Assembly (NCBI GenBank): GCA_021648085.1
Contig: JAKITS010000001.1
Span: 541,671-605,670, forward strand
Source of the DNA: Candidatus Magasanikiibacteriota bacterium
GTDB lineage: Bacteria; Patescibacteriota; Patescibacteriia; Magasanikbacterales; UBA922
DNA: 64,000 nt
Direction of reading: 5' to 3'
Below the pieces are notes generated by a model, which was given only the letters and a program-made list of their open reading frames with translations, was not told the DNA's origin and searched no databases. The translations under genes and the position numbers were made by a program. This document shows positions 25,347 to 51,851 of the stretch, in pieces. The number at the start of each line of letters is the position of its first letter. Position 1 is the stretch's first letter.

Positions 25347-26405
25347 ATGGCAACTGCCGTAACAGCAGGACAACTTAAAAAAAGTGGGAGTCTTACGCGT
25401 TCTATTTTTGATAGTGGTGAATTTTTGCCAATTGTTGCTGTAGCTTTGAGGAGTATGGGTGCTGGTGGAGCAATTGCAGATGTGTTATCGAATATGAAAG
25501 GTTTTAGCATGAAAGATTTACTCGGAACAACAAAAACAATTGCAAAACAATATACTCCTGCGATGGCACAAAAAAAAATAATGAATGCTGGAAATAAAAT
25601 AAAGGATACTGGCAAAAAAATTAGTGATTCTGGAGCTTTCAAAGCCATAAAACAAAAAGCTGGTTTTGGAGACCACAGACCAAAACAAACAACTGATCCT
25701 GATTTTGCAACAGATGAACAACTTAGTCCAGAATTTGGAGGTGGAGACGAAAAAGAAGAAGAACAAGAAGAATCATCTTTTACAGAAGAACCGGATGAAA
25801 ATGAGGAAGATGAAGAAGATACTCCAGGAGAAAAACCATACCAGCCATTTTCTAAGCCAAAACCAGAAGAAGAAAAAGAAGAGCTAGACAAAAAAAAGAA
25901 AGAAAAACAAGAAAAAGAAAAAACTCCAAAAGAGAGCGATCAGGAAAGATCTAAAAAATTTCAACAAAGTAAAAACCAACAAAGATTAAGATCTAAAAAA
26001 GGAAATGGAAAAGAAGATGTTAAAAAGAGGAAAGGAGGAAAAGAAAAGAAGGAAAAGAAAGAGAAAGAAGGAAAAAAAGAATTTACAAATATAGAATTAA
26101 TAGTTTGGCTACCTTGTGCTATTGCAGCAGACATAGCATCTATTATTCCTTATGTTGGATTAGTTATTAGCTGGCCTTTTGGTATATCCTTTTTTATATT
26201 TAAATGGGTAAAAAAATTTAATAAATCTACCACAGTAATGGTTAGTGGTTTAGATGTAATTTTAGAAGGCTTTTTCTCTACTATTCCAGCGAATACAGCC
26301 GATGTGCTTATAACTTATTCTATTTCAAAAGCTAAAAAATATGGAGTTAAAATCCCTGATGCAGAAAAAAAACTAAAAAAAGTTACAGGCGCAAAACCAA
26401 AATAA
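25347..26405 (+). CDS. Hypothetical membrane protein with basic N-domain, highly acidic then lysine-rich low-complexity linker, and two C-terminal TM helices
   Basis: 352 aa; EEEQEESSFTEEPDENEEDEED followed by KKKEKQEKEK...KEKKEKKEKEGKK, then hydrophobic IELIVWLPCAIAADIASIIPYVGLVISWPFGISFFIF. First gene of a same-strand cluster. Confidence 0.6.
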   Translation: MATAVTAGQLKKSGSLTRSIFDSGEFLPIVAVALRSMGAGGAIADVLSNMKGFSMKDLLGTTKTIAKQYTPAMAQKKIMNAGNKIKDTGKKISDSGAFKAIKQKAGFGDHRPKQTTDPDFATDEQLSPEFGGGDEKEEEQEESSFTEEPDENEEDEEDTPGEKPYQPFSKPKPEEEKEELDKKKKEKQEKEKTPKESDQERSKKFQQSKNQQRLRSKKGNGKEDVKKRKGGKEKKEKKEKEGKKEFTNIELIVWLPCAIAADIASIIPYVGLVISWPFGISFFIFKWVKKFNKSTTVMVSGLDVILEGFFSTIPANTADVLITYSISKAKKYGVKIPDAEKKLKKVTGAKPK

Positions 26406-26471
26406 TAAAATTTAAAAAATAAGACTAAAGAGTGTGTTATAATTTAATTACTACATATCACAAATAAAAAT

Positions 26472-27689
26472 ATGGACAAAAAGCGTATAATTTTCATAGC
26501 GATATTTTCAGTAGCTGTAATAGGAATAGGATATCTTATGTATTCTATTTTTTGGAAATCTTCTGAACCAACAATAATACCACCAGATAAAACTGTCACC
26601 GATACCACAAAATTACCGTCTGGAGGATCTTTTGCACAAAGCGATGACAAGGAAATAAATGACACAACCACACCTGAAGTTGGAGGTGCAATAGTAATAA
26701 GACCTACAGAATTGCCAGATTCTGGAATAAGAGAGGTTACAAGAGTTGTTGCAGAAAATCTCATAAACCCAAAGATAAACTCAAATGGCGATGTAAATTT
26801 TTATAATACAATAGACGGAAAATTTTACACTTCACAAAATGGAGAAACAGTAGAAATGAGTGAACAAGTATTTTTTAATGTAGAAAATGTCGTATGGTCT
26901 GGAGTAAACAACGAATCCATCATCGAATATCCGGACGGCTCAAATATTTACTATAACTTTGATACAGAAGTACAAAGAACACTTCCAAAACATTGGGAAG
27001 ACTTTTCTTTTTCCAAACAAGGTGACCAAATAGTTGCAAAAAGTATAGGAATTTCACCAGAAAATAGATGGCTCGTGAGTAGCGATGCTGATGGAAATAA
27101 TGTAACTTTAATAGAATCACTCGGAGAAAATGCTGATAAAGTAACCGTAGACTGGTCACCAAACAAACAAATAATAGGAGTAAGTTTAGCTGGTGGAGTC
27201 GCAGGTGCAAACAGACAAGAAGTATTTTTTGTTGGTCAAAATGGAGAAAATTTTAAATCCATGATTGTAGAAGGAAGAGGTTTTGAATCTATTTGGTCGC
27301 CAAGTGGAGATAAGCTTTTATACAGTGTTTACAGTACACGAAGCCAGTACAAACCAGAATTATGGGTAGTGAGTAGTAAGGTTGGTAATATAGGCTCAAA
27401 CAGAAAAATGCTCGGCATAAATACTTGGGCAGACAAATGTGCATTTGGAGACGAAAGAAACCTTTACTGTGCAGTTCCAAACAACCTTCCAGTTGGTAGT
27501 GGTTTTAGTTCAGATTTAGCAAACACTGCCACATACACATTGATAAGAATAGATACACAAACAACACTTCAAACACCACTCCAAATGGATGAAATCCACA
27601 GCATCGACAAAATATTTTTATCCAATGATGGTGGTACGCTTTATTTTACAGACAAATTTGAATCAGGTTTATTTAGTATTTCAATATGA
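26472..27689 (+). CDS. Membrane-anchored TolB-like / PD40-type beta-propeller protein
   Basis: 405 aa; N-terminal TM helix; repeated WSPxxxxI/L blades (VDWSPNKQIIGVSL, IWSPSGDKLLYSV). Confidence 0.7.
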   Translation: MDKKRIIFIAIFSVAVIGIGYLMYSIFWKSSEPTIIPPDKTVTDTTKLPSGGSFAQSDDKEINDTTTPEVGGAIVIRPTELPDSGIREVTRVVAENLINPKINSNGDVNFYNTIDGKFYTSQNGETVEMSEQVFFNVENVVWSGVNNESIIEYPDGSNIYYNFDTEVQRTLPKHWEDFSFSKQGDQIVAKSIGISPENRWLVSSDADGNNVTLIESLGENADKVTVDWSPNKQIIGVSLAGGVAGANRQEVFFVGQNGENFKSMIVEGRGFESIWSPSGDKLLYSVYSTRSQYKPELWVVSSKVGNIGSNRKMLGINTWADKCAFGDERNLYCAVPNNLPVGSGFSSDLANTATYTLIRIDTQTTLQTPLQMDEIHSIDKIFLSNDGGTLYFTDKFESGLFSISI

Positions 27690-36252: not shown

Positions 36253-37380
36253 TTAAACACTAAACTCTTCTAATTCAACATCAACCAATTCTTCTAAAAC
36301 AGAGCCTAATTCATCCAACCCTAATCCTTCAGAAAAATCAGAAACAGTTAATGCCAGTTTAATATCAACTTGTCTTACAATATCTTCACTTTCTTGGCGT
36401 ATCTTTTCTAATTCACCTGCTATTTCTCCTGACATTTTTTCCAATATTTTATCAACTTCATCACTAATTTCTTGAATATCTCCAACCAACTTTCGTACAT
36501 CTTCCATAATTTTCAAATCTGGCAAAGTAGTTTGCTGAAAAACCTCTAAAGATACTCTTGTTTTACTAATATACTCTTCTTTGTCAATTTTAAAACCTCT
36601 TAAAATAACCTGCTCTCTTAAAAGATGTTCATTATATTTATTAACCGCATAAATAGCCAAATTTATATGTTTAGGAATCTTTCTGTTTAAGCGTTGGTAT
36701 TCATTTTTCCGCACCGAAAGAACTTCATTCAAACGAACAACCTCACTTAAATTAAACTCAATTCTTTTATATTGTTTTTGATAGTCGCTATCATTACCAA
36801 ACAAATCACTCTCTAACTCATTAAGTCTTTTTTTATTATGCTCAATAGCAAAATCATAATAATTTTTATCAAACTCATCTTTAAATTTATTTGGATTAAA
36901 TGATACCGCACAAAAAACTCCATTTGGTTTAAATTCTTTATATTCAAAATTATTTTCACATGACACATGTACAAACTTTTGTATATTTTCTTTGTTATAA
37001 AAGTTTAACAAAATAAAAAAAATAAAAACCAACAAAACAAAAGATAAGACAAAAGATAAAATACTTTGAAAAATTACAAGAAAAATAGGTAGATAAAAAC
37101 AAAAAAAAGGAATTATAGATAAAATCAATATCTTATTTCTAATATCATTTTTGTTTAAAATTAAAAACATATTATTTTTTTTAGATTGTTTTTCTATTTT
37201 TTTTAATATTTCCAATCTTTGATTTTCTTGTCTTACTATTTTTAATTCATAAGAAGCTTTTTCTTCTTTTACTTGATCTTCATATTTCTTTTTTGCCTTT
37301 TCAAACTCTTCATCATAAATATTACGGCGTATAGATACAAAATCTAACCACAATCTTTTTTTTAATGTATCGATTTTCAC
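36253..37380 (-). CDS. Hypothetical membrane protein with central TM hairpin and coiled-coil flanks (GTG start)
   Basis: 375 aa; hydrophobic ILILSIIPFFCFYLPIFLVIFQSILSFVLSFVLLVFIFFILLNF. Confidence 0.55.
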   Translation of the reverse strand: MKIDTLKKRLWLDFVSIRRNIYDEEFEKAKKKYEDQVKEEKASYELKIVRQENQRLEILKKIEKQSKKNNMFLILNKNDIRNKILILSIIPFFCFYLPIFLVIFQSILSFVLSFVLLVFIFFILLNFYNKENIQKFVHVSCENNFEYKEFKPNGVFCAVSFNPNKFKDEFDKNYYDFAIEHNKKRLNELESDLFGNDSDYQKQYKRIEFNLSEVVRLNEVLSVRKNEYQRLNRKIPKHINLAIYAVNKYNEHLLREQVILRGFKIDKEEYISKTRVSLEVFQQTTLPDLKIMEDVRKLVGDIQEISDEVDKILEKMSGEIAGELEKIRQESEDIVRQVDIKLALTVSDFSEGLGLDELGSVLEELVDVELEEFSV

Positions 37381-37613: not shown

Positions 37614-37880
37614 AAATTATATCTGGAACAGTCCAATTATACCTCAAAACCATGACAAAGTCAACCATAAGAACCTATTCAACATCTTTTTCCTATTTAA
37701 TCTCACTCTATTTTGACTACAAATTTTATAAACAAGTTCGGTATAAAAATATTATTCCTTACTTTTTTATAAAATTTTCGCTCAAAATATAATAAAACTG
37801 ACTTAGAAAAAAGATATTAAATATGTTCTAGAAACAAAAAATACAAGTTTCCTTGTGTTTTTTGTTTAGTGTTTTTAAAA

Positions 37881-37922
37881 CGAGATCCGTTCGACTCCAC
37901 TTCGTTTTGCTCAGGATGACGT
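37881..37922 (+). repeat. REP-like unit (long variant)
   Basis: CGAGATCCGTTCGACTCCACTTCGTTTTGCTCAGGATGACGTG. Confidence 0.65.
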
Positions 37923-49259: not shown

Positions 49260-49288
49260 TTGACAAAACAGCAAAGAATGTGTATAAT
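49260..49288 (+). promoter_or_regulatory. Consensus sigma70-type promoter (TTGACA, 17 nt, TATAAT) driving tRNA-Leu, divergent from parA
   Basis: TTGACAAAACAGCAAAGAATGTGTATAAT, ~30 bp upstream of the tRNA 5-prime end. Confidence 0.6.
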
Positions 49289-49318: not shown

Positions 49319-49400
49319 GCCGAAGTGGCGGAACTGGTAGACGCGCACGACTCAAAATCGTGTTCCTTCGGGAGTGAGGGTTCGATTCCCTCCTTCGGCA
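49319..49400 (+). tRNA. tRNA-Leu (anticodon CAA), class II with long variable arm
   Basis: GCCGAAG-TG-GCGGAACTGGTAGACGC-GCACGA-CTCAAAA-TCGTG-TTCCTTCGGGAGT-GAGGG-TTCGATT-CCCTC-CTTCGGC-A. Confidence 0.85.
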
Positions 49401-49412
49401 CAGCACAGAATA
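49384..49412 (+). repeat. 29-bp direct repeat copy 1 (last 17 nt of tRNA-Leu plus 12 nt downstream)
   Basis: GATTCCCTCCTTCGGCACAGCACAGAATA; perfect match to 49543-49571. Confidence 0.75.
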
Positions 49413-49542
49413 ATGACACAATAGTTTGTGTCATGTGTGGGAATCGAAAATCGGAGCGATGTCTGAGTTTGCCCAAAGAGGTAAGGCGATGACCGCGAGG
49501 TGGGGTCGCGGAAAATTTACGTCAGTAAATTTATCTGTGATA

Positions 49543-49571
49543 GATTCCCTCCTTCGGCACAGCACAGAATA
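49543..49571 (+). repeat. 29-bp direct repeat copy 2 (partial duplicate of the tRNA-Leu 3-prime end)
   Basis: Identical 29-mer, 159 bp downstream of copy 1. Not part of a second tRNA: no matching 5-prime T-stem or acceptor stem. Confidence 0.75.
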
Positions 49572-49604: not shown

Positions 49605-49790
49605 ATGAAACTTATTGAAAAGTTAATAGGATATTCAATAATATTATTTACTGTTTTTGCACTACCAAAACTATTTGGAATACAAGATAACACCACAACT
49701 CTTTTTTATGGAGGATTTTGTTTAATGGTTGGTGCAAGTTATATGACATATTATATGATTCGAAAACTCAAAGAATTAGATAAAAAGTAA
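49605..49790 (+). CDS. Small membrane protein (two TM helices)
   Basis: 61 aa; GGAGG RBS 6 nt upstream of ATG; hydrophobic. Confidence 0.4.
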   Translation: MKLIEKLIGYSIILFTVFALPKLFGIQDNTTTLFYGGFCLMVGASYMTYYMIRKLKELDKK

Positions 49791-49843
49791 TAAACCTTGT
49801 AAAAGGGTTTATTTTTTTTACAAAAAAGGCTATTATTAATATT

Positions 49844-50845: not shown

Positions 50846-51328
50846 GTGTTCTTTACCAAAACTAAGGAGGTAGAAATGAGCGACCACAGAGAAAAAATTA
50901 GTTTTTTACTTGCTTTGCTAGGAGTGACTAGTAAGCTATCAGCTCGTTTTTCTGGAGTCATACAACTAACCGAAGAGTTAGCAAAAAAAGGATTAATCAG
51001 CGGTGGTTTTGAACTAACCGCTTTGGAAGAAATTTCAGACAGAACAATCTCAAACTACAAACACCTAACTGAAGAGTTTCTTATTGATGCTTTTGTAGAA
51101 ATTTGGGATGAAGATGAGATAGATAATATTACAGCTATTATCTTAAGTAATCCCCCCATTCAAAAGTTATTTTTGTCTGTCGGGAAGATGGCAAAAAAAG
51201 CCCATAAAAATGCAATAAAAAAAGTAAGTCAGCAAATTACTGCCATCGGGATTAAACTTGACCAAGAATCTAAACCTCTCGGGTTCAATGATCCTAAAAG
51301 AAAGTTAACAAAAAAACCACTAAACTGA
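50846..51328 (+). CDS. DUF2059-like small protein (FTEEEL-type motif), paralog 1
   Basis: 160 aa; NYKHLTEEFLIDAFVEI resembles the DUF2059 motif. Own terminator 51336-51368 (AAACCACCTTTAAAAGGTGGTTTTTTT). Confidence 0.5.
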   Translation: MFFTKTKEVEMSDHREKISFLLALLGVTSKLSARFSGVIQLTEELAKKGLISGGFELTALEEISDRTISNYKHLTEEFLIDAFVEIWDEDEIDNITAIILSNPPIQKLFLSVGKMAKKAHKNAIKKVSQQITAIGIKLDQESKPLGFNDPKRKLTKKPLN

Positions 51329-51422: not shown

Positions 51423-51851
51423 ATGTCAGACAGCGATACAAGAAAAATAGAACTCGCAGAAGAAATTTTAGTACTAAGTTTTGTAAGTCCAAGCTTCTTA
51501 CTAGAATCTATGTTTTTGTTTGCAGGGATTTTGATGAAATTTTCAGAAACAGAAGAATCAGAAAATATAGATGAGCAAAAAATAGTAGCTTTACAAAAGT
51601 CTGCTTCTGATTTATCGATAAGTCATGATAAAAAATTAATTAAATTATTTGCAGATAATTTTACAGAAGAAGAATTAGAAACTTTATTTGAATTAATAAA
51701 TGAACCACTCATATTAAGACTATTACTCTTAATAGGTACTGGCGGTAAAATTAAAGTAGAGATACAGAATATGCACATTGAATTAATTGAGTTCATTAGA
51801 ACAAAGTTAAAAGATATATTAATTAAGATAGACCTGTCCAAAATGAACTAA
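51423..51851 (+). CDS. DUF2059-like small protein, paralog 2
   Basis: 142 aa; FADNFTEEELETLFELINEP. Own near-identical terminator 51858-51892 (AAACCACCTTTTCAAAAGGTGGTTTT). Confidence 0.5.
   Translation: MSDSDTRKIELAEEILVLSFVSPSFLLESMFLFAGILMKFSETEESENIDEQKIVALQKSASDLSISHDKKLIKLFADNFTEEELETLFELINEPLILRLLLLIGTGGKIKVEIQNMHIELIEFIRTKLKDILIKIDLSKMN

Follow-up and report, generated by a model that had tools for sequence, protein, structure and literature searches.

The 64-kb window analysed here (64,000 nucleotides of contig JAKITS010000001.1 from a Candidatus Magasanikiibacteriota bacterium) contains a tRNA-Leu(CAA) gene whose 3' end is repeated, in two copies termed X1 and X2, on either side of a 130-nt spacer. 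We propose, with a probability of roughly 55%, that these repeats bound one 159-bp unit of a family of small, structured, non-autonomous elements, mobile now or in the past, that reside 3' of tRNA genes in Patescibacteria. The family is absent from Rfam. Each unit consists of an antisense copy of the tRNA T-loop and T-stem 3' strand, a conserved three-way-junction core, and a sense copy of the tRNA 3' end beginning at position 57; in some members the antisense part also covers the acceptor 3' strand, and a hairpin interrupts or precedes it. The assignment is carried by a conserved fold with many compensatory changes, by purifying selection on the element in the clade of the window, and by a core that is common to sites at tRNA-Leu, tRNA-Ala, and tRNA-Glu, divergent at tRNA-Met, and weakly matching in a tandem arrangement at another tRNA-Ala. 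The flanks are specific to each local tRNA in both sense and antisense orientation. The orthologous site is empty in more distant relatives, and some copies are tandem or truncated.

The repeat is the 29-mer GATTCCCTCCTTCGGCACAGCACAGAATA, which occurs exactly twice in the window (Table 1); no further copy was found there when up to three mismatches were allowed, none is expected by chance, and none of 100 dinucleotide-preserving shuffles contained a match. It comprises 17 nt of the tRNA, from G57 in the T-loop to the discriminator base A73, and 12 nt past the tRNA. An earlier note on this DNA, made from the letters alone, had described precisely this duplication and had likened it to integration at a tRNA 3' end, a comparison that fits the start of the repeat at the classic T-loop position. 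The spacer is without a credible open reading frame (ORF) and has a G+C content of 45%, compared with 33% for the window. Upstream of the tRNA, the consensus promoter reported in the note is real as a pattern, and the related locus L089 carries an identical promoter sequence. The terminator scan found no plus-strand terminator from the tRNA to a 61-aa ORF downstream, which together with the promoter makes the suggested co-transcription of element and tRNA plausible. We infer that this promoter drives tRNA-Leu, the element, and the 61-aa ORF, the last of which is probably on the same transcript as the element. The locus is set in core chromosome, between topA, relA/spoT, parB, and parA at one flank and a metallophosphoesterase with further genes at the other. 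Related loci place the organism with Candidatus Magasanikbacteria-type Patescibacteria.

Conservation was assessed at the tRNA-Leu locus of related genomes. In most of 80 parA loci from species-representative genomes (ParA identity up to 69%), tRNA-Leu(CAA) lies divergent from parA, and nothing resembling the 130-nt spacer was found in any of the 80. The start codon of the phosphoesterase lies 1-5 nt past tRNA-Leu in L003, L013, and L114, which are empty sites of the kind that the earlier note proposed to look for. The closest relatives recovered came from a protein search with the adjacent phosphoesterase (P0002, 74% identity; P0003, 64% identity), and both contigs carry a homologous spacer, in L085 (the sequence of the longer L089) and in L086, respectively. 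L089 has the order parA, promoter, tRNA-Leu, element, 62-aa ORF, phosphoesterase. In L086, the element follows a promoter-like sequence, without a tRNA in the 170 nt upstream and without a small ORF. A protein-based metagenome scan with the phosphoesterase as query gave no match. The core is 78% (L089) and 82% (L086) identical to that of the window, and identity at third codon positions in the adjacent gene is 64% and 54%, respectively; the unstructured spacer 5' of the ORF is 57% identical. The tRNA-derived part of X2 is retained at 18 of 18 positions in L089, where the trailer has diverged. The spacer thus evolves about half as fast as neighbouring silent sites, and the element has persisted under constraint through at least two speciations. 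The exact 12-nt trailer of the window can be read as chance retention (~0.8^12) or as a short tract of gene conversion; in another reading, the window would contain one 159-nt monomer followed by the first 29 nt of a second, like the tandem array of L117 described below. In X1, the 12 nt (the AGCACAGAATA region) may derive from an antisense copy of the 3' acceptor strand that has since decayed; an antisense acceptor strand is clear at this position in L086, L088, and L090.

The consensus fold, obtained with RNAalifold from five homologues, comprises four helical elements, namely hairpin hp1, the closing helix P1, the P2 domain, and a long P3/hp3 stem. On this structure, 94.8% of the cells are paired, compared with about 43% once the partners are slid as a control. 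Changes on both sides are found in 19 of the 39 pairs, a count equalled by 0 of 500 shuffles. In the spacer, GGGAATCGAA is reverse-complementary to the tRNA segment TTCGATTCCC, which covers the T-loop and the 3' strand of the T-stem; within GGGAATCGAA, GGGAAUC forms P1 with GAUUCCC, the first seven bases of X2. The earlier note does not mention this antisense copy. P1 closes the three-way-junction core and is predicted in every homologue; it reads GGGGAUC/GAUCCCC beside tRNA-Met, whose T-loop is TTCGATC, and AAGAUUC/GAAUCUU beside a tRNA-Ala. As the sense and antisense copies of the tRNA end pair, the element closes into an acceptor/T-arm-like helix. In the tRNA-Leu lineage (L089, L086), P1 is extended by an acceptor-like GAAG/CUUC helix; in the window, GAAU of X1 aligns with GAAG, and its U-C cell is unpaired, with the loss of one of four pairs. 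The acceptor-like strand is nearly complete in L086 (GACGAAG, pairing as GACGAAG/CUUCGGC), which shows the best acceptor-like pairing. One G-U pair in P3/hp3 is invariant, and G-U cells exceed C-A cells by 10 to 2; the folded strand is therefore the tRNA-sense strand. A single-sequence minimum-free-energy fold that pairs CCGCGAGGUGGGG with X2 was rejected in favour of the covariation-supported P1/P2/P3 fold because this pairing is absent in L089. Of the three hairpins listed in the earlier note, the first (hp1) and the third (AAATTTAC/GTAAATTT, within P3/hp3) are borne out by compensatory changes, and the second (CCGCGA/TCGCGG) is not: TCGCGG instead pairs with CTGTGA, extending the third hairpin, and CGC pairs with an upstream GCG.

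Table 1 Features of the tRNA-Leu locus in the 64-kb window
Feature	Position	Strand	Evidence or remark
Sigma-70-type promoter, TTGACA-17-TATAAT	49260-49288	+	12/12 match to consensus
tRNA-Leu(CAA), without encoded CCA	49319-49400 (ARAGORN end 49400/49401)	+	ARAGORN; Rfam RF00005, 60.9 bits
Repeat copy X1 (tRNA positions 57-73 = 49384-49400, plus 12 nt)	49384-49412	+	Exact repeat search
Hairpin hp1 (ATGACACAA / TAGT / TTGTGTCAT)	49413-49434	+	Compensatory change in 9/9 pairs, 5 homologues
Antisense T-loop and T-stem 3' strand (GTGGGAATCGAA)	49437-49448	+	GGGAATC (49439-49445) is the 5' strand of P1
Conserved junction and P2 domain (AAAUCGGAGCGAUGU ... GCGAGGUGGGG), variable inner hairpin	49449-49503	+	A-U to G-C covariation in P2
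P3 and hairpin hp3, ending with conserved YGUGA just 5' of X2	49504-49542	+	16 pairs, 8 compensatory
Repeat copy X2	49543-49571	+	GATTCCC (49543-49549) is the 3' strand of P1; 49543-49560 identical to tRNA 3' end
61-aa membrane ORF with strong ribosome-binding site	49605-49790 (ORF); part to 49820	+	Hairpin and T-run read by eye, 49793-49820

These data bear on an explanation put forward in the earlier note, namely that a full-size element was almost wholly deleted and left non-functional remains between attL and attR. Direct repeats of a tRNA 3' end and empty sites in relatives are what such a deletion would leave. A core that is 78-82% identical where silent sites are 54-64% identical, together with the retained X2, is however unlike a neutral scar; with 19 compensatory pairs, and X2 identical in a second species, we consider the scar the least probable of the accounts weighed here.

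Family members were also found beside other tRNA genes. The invariant block GGGAATCGAAARTCGGAGCGAT, used as query in a metagenome scan, recovered L088, L090, and L089. In L088 the element lies 3' of tRNA-Ala(GGC), and in L090 it lies 3' of tRNA-Glu(CTC), accompanied by truncated extra copies. The left part of both is the exact reverse complement of the 3' end of their own tRNA, including 3-6 nt or more of trailer, and hp1 interrupts this antisense part. Since the antisense part complements the 3' strand even at G-U pairs of the tRNA, it is not a copy of the tRNA 5' strand. The downstream sense copy in these two loci is just 7-8 nt long. The covariance model identified a divergent member 3' of tRNA-Met in L080, in which the core is flanked by direct repeats of about 55 nt that run from the T-loop to CCA and take in the trailer and terminator, and the antisense segment GGGGATCGAA matches the TTCGATC loop of the host tRNA. 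L117, reached via the neighbour gene of L088, contains two tandem units 3' of tRNA-Ala(TGC); the model matches the second unit only, and weakly (20.8 bits), the first having been assigned by eye. Both units of L117 start with an identical 19-nt antisense segment, in which 18 nt are exactly reverse-complementary to the 3' end of the tRNA; the final sense copy is degenerate. Three further candidates, L023 (weak model match), L049, and L065 (motif matches), lie in coding sequence or were unconfirmed and were set aside. As a separate observation, L090 carries at 880-1085 a degenerate second core after the first element, followed by a second left end (antisense acceptor, hp1, GGGAATCGAA) that is flanked by GAGTTTAGAAA and GAGTTTGAAA and then by several ORFs without a Pfam match; this region may be the edge of a larger island.

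A scan for sense and antisense copies of a tRNA's own 3' end covered 116 tRNAs with at least 80 nt downstream, of 118 found in the fetched loci. It added L067 (tRNA-Met) and L063/L070 (tRNA-Leu), which are alike in layout and differ in their cores. The motif YGUGA precedes the sense copy in every member except L067, including L080, L117, and L070. The close relatives L070 and L063 differ by a 124-nt block with the core and the sense copy, present in one and absent from the other; their flanks differ at few positions, as read by eye from the alignment, and they share a hairpin with a compensatory change. Other members share the left border at the T-loop, with duplication lengths of 18, 29, and ~55 nt. 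When the cores were compared with the bodies of the host tRNAs by local alignment in sense and antisense, they scored no better than shuffles, and no downstream gene is conserved among the loci with the core.

From X1 to the antisense copy, the sequence reads as a long palindrome, perfect or decayed, in L088, L090 (where it measures 25 bp with the terminator), L117, and L070/L063. Such palindromes are what would be expected if the units were functionless by-products of replication or repair errors at tRNA terminators, with the 3' end copied by fold-back. We regard this as highly improbable, as it leaves unexplained both the conservation of the core sequence across different tRNA loci and the purifying selection.

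Selection and covariation would also be expected of an immobile host RNA, in which a local duplication of the tRNA end gave rise to a small RNA (sRNA) or a tRNA-like processing signal that separates tRNA-Leu from the mRNA downstream or defines the sRNA. The probable co-transcription with the tRNA and the ORF fits this explanation, as does L086, where the element with the best acceptor-like pairing stands behind a promoter-like sequence with no tRNA upstream. It is nonetheless an unlikely one: the core occurs at three tRNA species in unrelated contexts, and in divergent form at tRNA-Met, with no conserved downstream gene; it is missing from most orthologous tRNA-Leu loci; and there are tandem and truncated copies as well as the presence/absence difference between L070 and L063. 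Features such as tandem copies, presence/absence, and varied tRNA contexts typify mobile elements more than housekeeping RNAs. Among established tRNA-like RNAs (the tmRNA domain, viral 3' tRNA-like structures, mascRNA), the element resembles these in its predicted helix of T-stem and part of the acceptor ending at the discriminator base. It differs in that a three-way-junction core replaces the T-loop, that several members have a weak acceptor helix or none, and that no Rfam model for tmRNA, tRNA, or mascRNA matches.

Searches for known RNA families and for associated enzymes were negative within their scope. Rfam 15, whose families include tRNA-like RNAs, tmRNA, RNase P, self-cleaving ribozymes, and riboswitches, gave no match over the element at E <= 10 for the window and E <= 5 for L085, L086, and L088, and ARAGORN with introns, tmRNA detection, and a lowered threshold returned spurious calls only. 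A decayed tRNA half was rejected, as an nhmmer profile of 68 tRNA-Leu genes matched only the 3' 17-mer in the spacer. Inspection also dismissed a hammerhead ribozyme, whose junction is similar (CGAAA, CUGUGA) but whose invariant A6 is missing, with a G at the cleavage position, Rfam being silent here too; and a parS reading of the third hairpin, which lacks the CACGTG centre. A phage or plasmid origin was not supported, as blastn against a phage collection gave no match, and three pattern scans of IMG/VR yielded tRNA genes or chance matches only, none confirmed by the covariance model. Pfam detected no recombinase among the 20 ORFs tested from the window, which are housekeeping genes or without a Pfam match, or among the neighbours of the element in L088 and L090. 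Proteins of the window matched no record in searches for exact identity. The literature searched contains no description of such elements; its coverage is incomplete, and this is accordingly weak evidence of novelty.

A miniature integrative element acting at the DNA level only, similar to the cis-mobilizable elements (CIMEs) derived from integrative and conjugative elements (ICEs), would account for several of the same features. The unit would be the remainder of, or a passenger on, an element integrated by a tyrosine integrase supplied in trans, with crossover at the T-loop; the repeats would be attL and attR, and the spacer would be the attP arm region. The sublocations of att sites within tRNA genes fall into classes that include the T-loop and the anticodon loop, and here, too, identity begins in the T-loop and extends to the end of the tRNA, the pattern of classical tRNA att sites. 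Like T-loop-targeting tyrosine-integrase elements and CIMEs, the element shows a direct repeat of the tRNA 3' end, an intact tRNA, empty sites in relatives, and tandem copies, complete in L117 and partial in L090; in addition, tRNA-Leu(CAA) with an identical 3' 18-mer occurs on an IMG/VR contig, where it precedes what appears by eye, without a profile check, to be the N-terminus of an integrase. There are also differences: no integrase was found beside any copy examined, the whole unit is ~130 nt of covarying structure that includes an antisense target copy paired with the distal repeat, and the unit is conserved under selection over long divergence. Stem covariation and the invariant G-U pair point to a folded single strand and not to double-stranded protein-binding arms. 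A length of 130 bp is also very small for excision as a duplex circle, and the element has been kept under constraint through at least two speciations. Overall, we judge this account rather unlikely. The second possibility of the earlier note, a miniature non-autonomous element in general terms, comes close to what the data suggest. The note had also stated that a conserved spacer in all relatives and a lack of integrase-associated copies would favour a conserved structured RNA, and this is largely the pattern found. Miniature derivatives of IS200/IS605 or IS91-type elements have subterminal hairpins, insert 3' of a fixed tetra- or pentanucleotide, and produce no target duplication. Subterminal hairpins are present in our element and the junction falls right after GTTC of the T-loop, but the duplication is long, hp1 and hp3 are unrelated in sequence, and no transposase was found.

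The order of scaffold and tail further recalls guide RNAs, such as the CRISPR RNAs (crRNAs) of type I-F and V-K CRISPR-associated transposons (CASTs) and the omega-RNAs of TnpB: a structured scaffold ends sharply at YGUGA, and the 17-18 nt on its 3' side repeat the end of the tRNA gene exactly. In this explanation the tail would be a guide matching the tRNA gene, with GGTTC as the adjacent motif, and the homing of CASTs to tRNA genes directed by delocalized crRNAs is documented (PMC11656645). However, no TnpB, Cas12, or Tn7-like gene, and no other effector or transposase gene, lies beside any copy; the element sits directly beside its supposed target; the tail is partly base-paired, its first 7 nt being sequestered in P1 by the antisense segment; and it matches the tRNA for 7-8 nt only in L088 and L090. 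As an intact target with its motif lies ~140 nt upstream, an active nuclease would cut its own host. A guide RNA therefore appears very unlikely to us.

Returning to a mobile element of the proposed family, its formation may be envisaged as follows. Insertion directed to the T-loop would duplicate the tRNA 3' end, with a left border fixed at 56/57 and a variable right border. The element would be non-autonomous and transcribed together with tRNA-Leu from the consensus promoter. X2 would be retained as the structural strand that closes the element and sequesters the antisense segment, which, if unsequestered, might base-pair with the T-arm and the acceptor strand of the tRNA itself; X2 may in addition provide the RNA with an end resembling that of a tRNA, a possible substrate for RNase P, RNase Z, and the CCA-adding enzyme. 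The inserting activity may be an integrase acting in trans, an HUH-type enzyme that works on single strands, a guided system, or a target-primed reaction. More specifically, the element may work through its RNA structure, in that its antisense segment pairs with T-arms, its tRNA-like helix is trimmed by tRNA-maturation enzymes, and a guided or target-primed insertion at 56/57 duplicates the tRNA end; we advance this version tentatively, as possible though well short of probable.

Several points weigh against assignment to a mobile family. The 64-kb window contains one copy only and gives no sign of multi-copy behaviour in this genome, and at least ~10 loci were recovered in all. Integrases, transposases, reverse transcriptases, and TnpB/Cas proteins are absent beside every copy examined and among the 20 ORFs tested from the window. 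A terminator-like hairpin stands between tRNA and element in L080 and L090, so RNA expression is not assured everywhere, and folded single-stranded DNA may be the working form. Given the sense copy of 7-8 nt in L088 and L090, the acceptor-like helix is not universal. The sense and antisense matches could also have arisen by gene conversion or palindrome extension instead of insertion, and conservation in three genomes is no proof of a benefit to the host.

Other small repeated sequences offer partial parallels. As in repetitive extragenic palindromic (REP) sequences and the related BIMEs and REPINs, Rickettsia palindromic elements, and miniature inverted-repeat transposable elements, the unit is small and non-coding, has inverted-repeat ends and a hairpin-rich transcript, and is tolerated beside or within genes in a reduced genome. 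In contrast to these, its inverted ends match the local tRNA and vary with it, there is no short target duplication of fixed length, and the window holds a single copy. Eukaryotic short interspersed nuclear elements (SINEs), which spread by retroposition, are likewise short, structured, tRNA-related, and non-autonomous, and the duplication with one fixed and one variable border (18, 29, ~55 nt) is comparable. The present element is bacterial, lacks an A-rich tail, and has no known reverse transcriptase, and the likeness to SINEs is an analogy only.

If our assignment is correct, the reduced genomes of Patescibacteria carry tiny, previously unrecorded elements that copy the 3' end of the adjacent tRNA in both directions around a conserved core. 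They constitute a defined RNA motif, for which an alignment and a covariance model have been made and which can be searched for across Patescibacteria genomes. A gene-less unit of ~130 nt inserted at a fixed T-loop position would be a tractable case in which to study how such insertion proceeds and by which enzyme, and, should the SINE-like or guided version be true, it would represent the equivalent in prokaryotes of tRNA-related SINEs, or guided insertion of a new class. For annotation, it would follow that a partial tRNA 3' end found past a tRNA gene in these organisms is not always the scar of an integrase.

The 61-aa ORF downstream of X2 accompanies the element in L089/L085 and is missing from L086 (occupied) and L114 (empty site). 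Its absence from L086 and from the empty-site relatives indicates that it was acquired in the small clade that also acquired the element; it may or may not belong to the element. A word-indexed search of a 5.8-billion-protein index at E <= 0.001 returned only the ORF itself, also missing the diverged 62-aa ORF of L089, its sole recovered relative, and on this result the idea of the ORF as cargo was set aside. A weak, sub-threshold match to DUF2304 was noted. The terminator-like hairpin past the ORF was read by eye and is unflagged by the terminator scan. Further downstream, the ORFs taken for DUF2059 paralogs in the earlier note (50846-51328 and 51423-51851) have no Pfam match at E <= 0.001.

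The window contains further features of possible interest. At 37880-37910 (+), a T-loop-like sequence, GTTCGACTCC, lies ~280 nt from tRNA-Arg on the opposite strand and is recognised neither as a tRNA nor as a tmRNA. At 25347-27689 and 36253-37380 there are three ORFs, 352-405 aa long and without a Pfam match, one of which adjoins tRNA-Arg.

In other genomes the tRNA-Leu locus holds cassettes of different kinds, namely GIY-YIG genes accompanied by tRNA halves, and modules of two hairpins within tRNA loops, and it is therefore a hotspot. A link of the GIY-YIG genes to the element was considered and dropped: they lie beside tRNA-Leu in L005, L011, L017, L045, and L055, and none is found in the window or beside any element copy. 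In L005 (3364-3825, minus strand) and L017 (3125-3573, minus strand), a promoter is followed by the tRNA-Leu 5' half (positions 1-34) and a two-hairpin module of 62-66 nt with mutually complementary loops, inserted exactly at 34/35. Past the module lie 6-8 nt of tRNA, an 80-90 aa GIY-YIG ORF, and a complete tRNA-Leu, an arrangement that looks like a homing-endonuclease-type cassette with a replacement tRNA part. L055 (3130-3620, minus strand) and L045 (1355-1509, minus strand) comprise a GIY-YIG ORF and a complete tRNA-Leu followed by displaced 3' halves from A35, which mismatch the 5' half of the resident tRNA. L055 also contains nested tRNA fragments, with a two-hairpin module (loops ACGTAG and CTACGT) in each anticodon loop and T-loop. 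In L011 (3280-3900, minus strand) and L015 (3620-3890, minus strand), a tRNA-Leu 3' fragment is duplicated with a hairpin between TTC and GATT of the T-loop, and upstream a tRNA 5' fragment of 10-12 nt is followed by a hairpin; in L011, the upstream and downstream hairpins are mutually reverse complementary and flank a GIY-YIG gene and an intact tRNA. Finally, in the IMG/VR contig mentioned above (L084, 5191-5500), the tyrosine-integrase-like N-terminus follows the tRNA directly, and the locus looks like an ordinary tRNA-Leu-integrated provirus of an organism with higher G+C.

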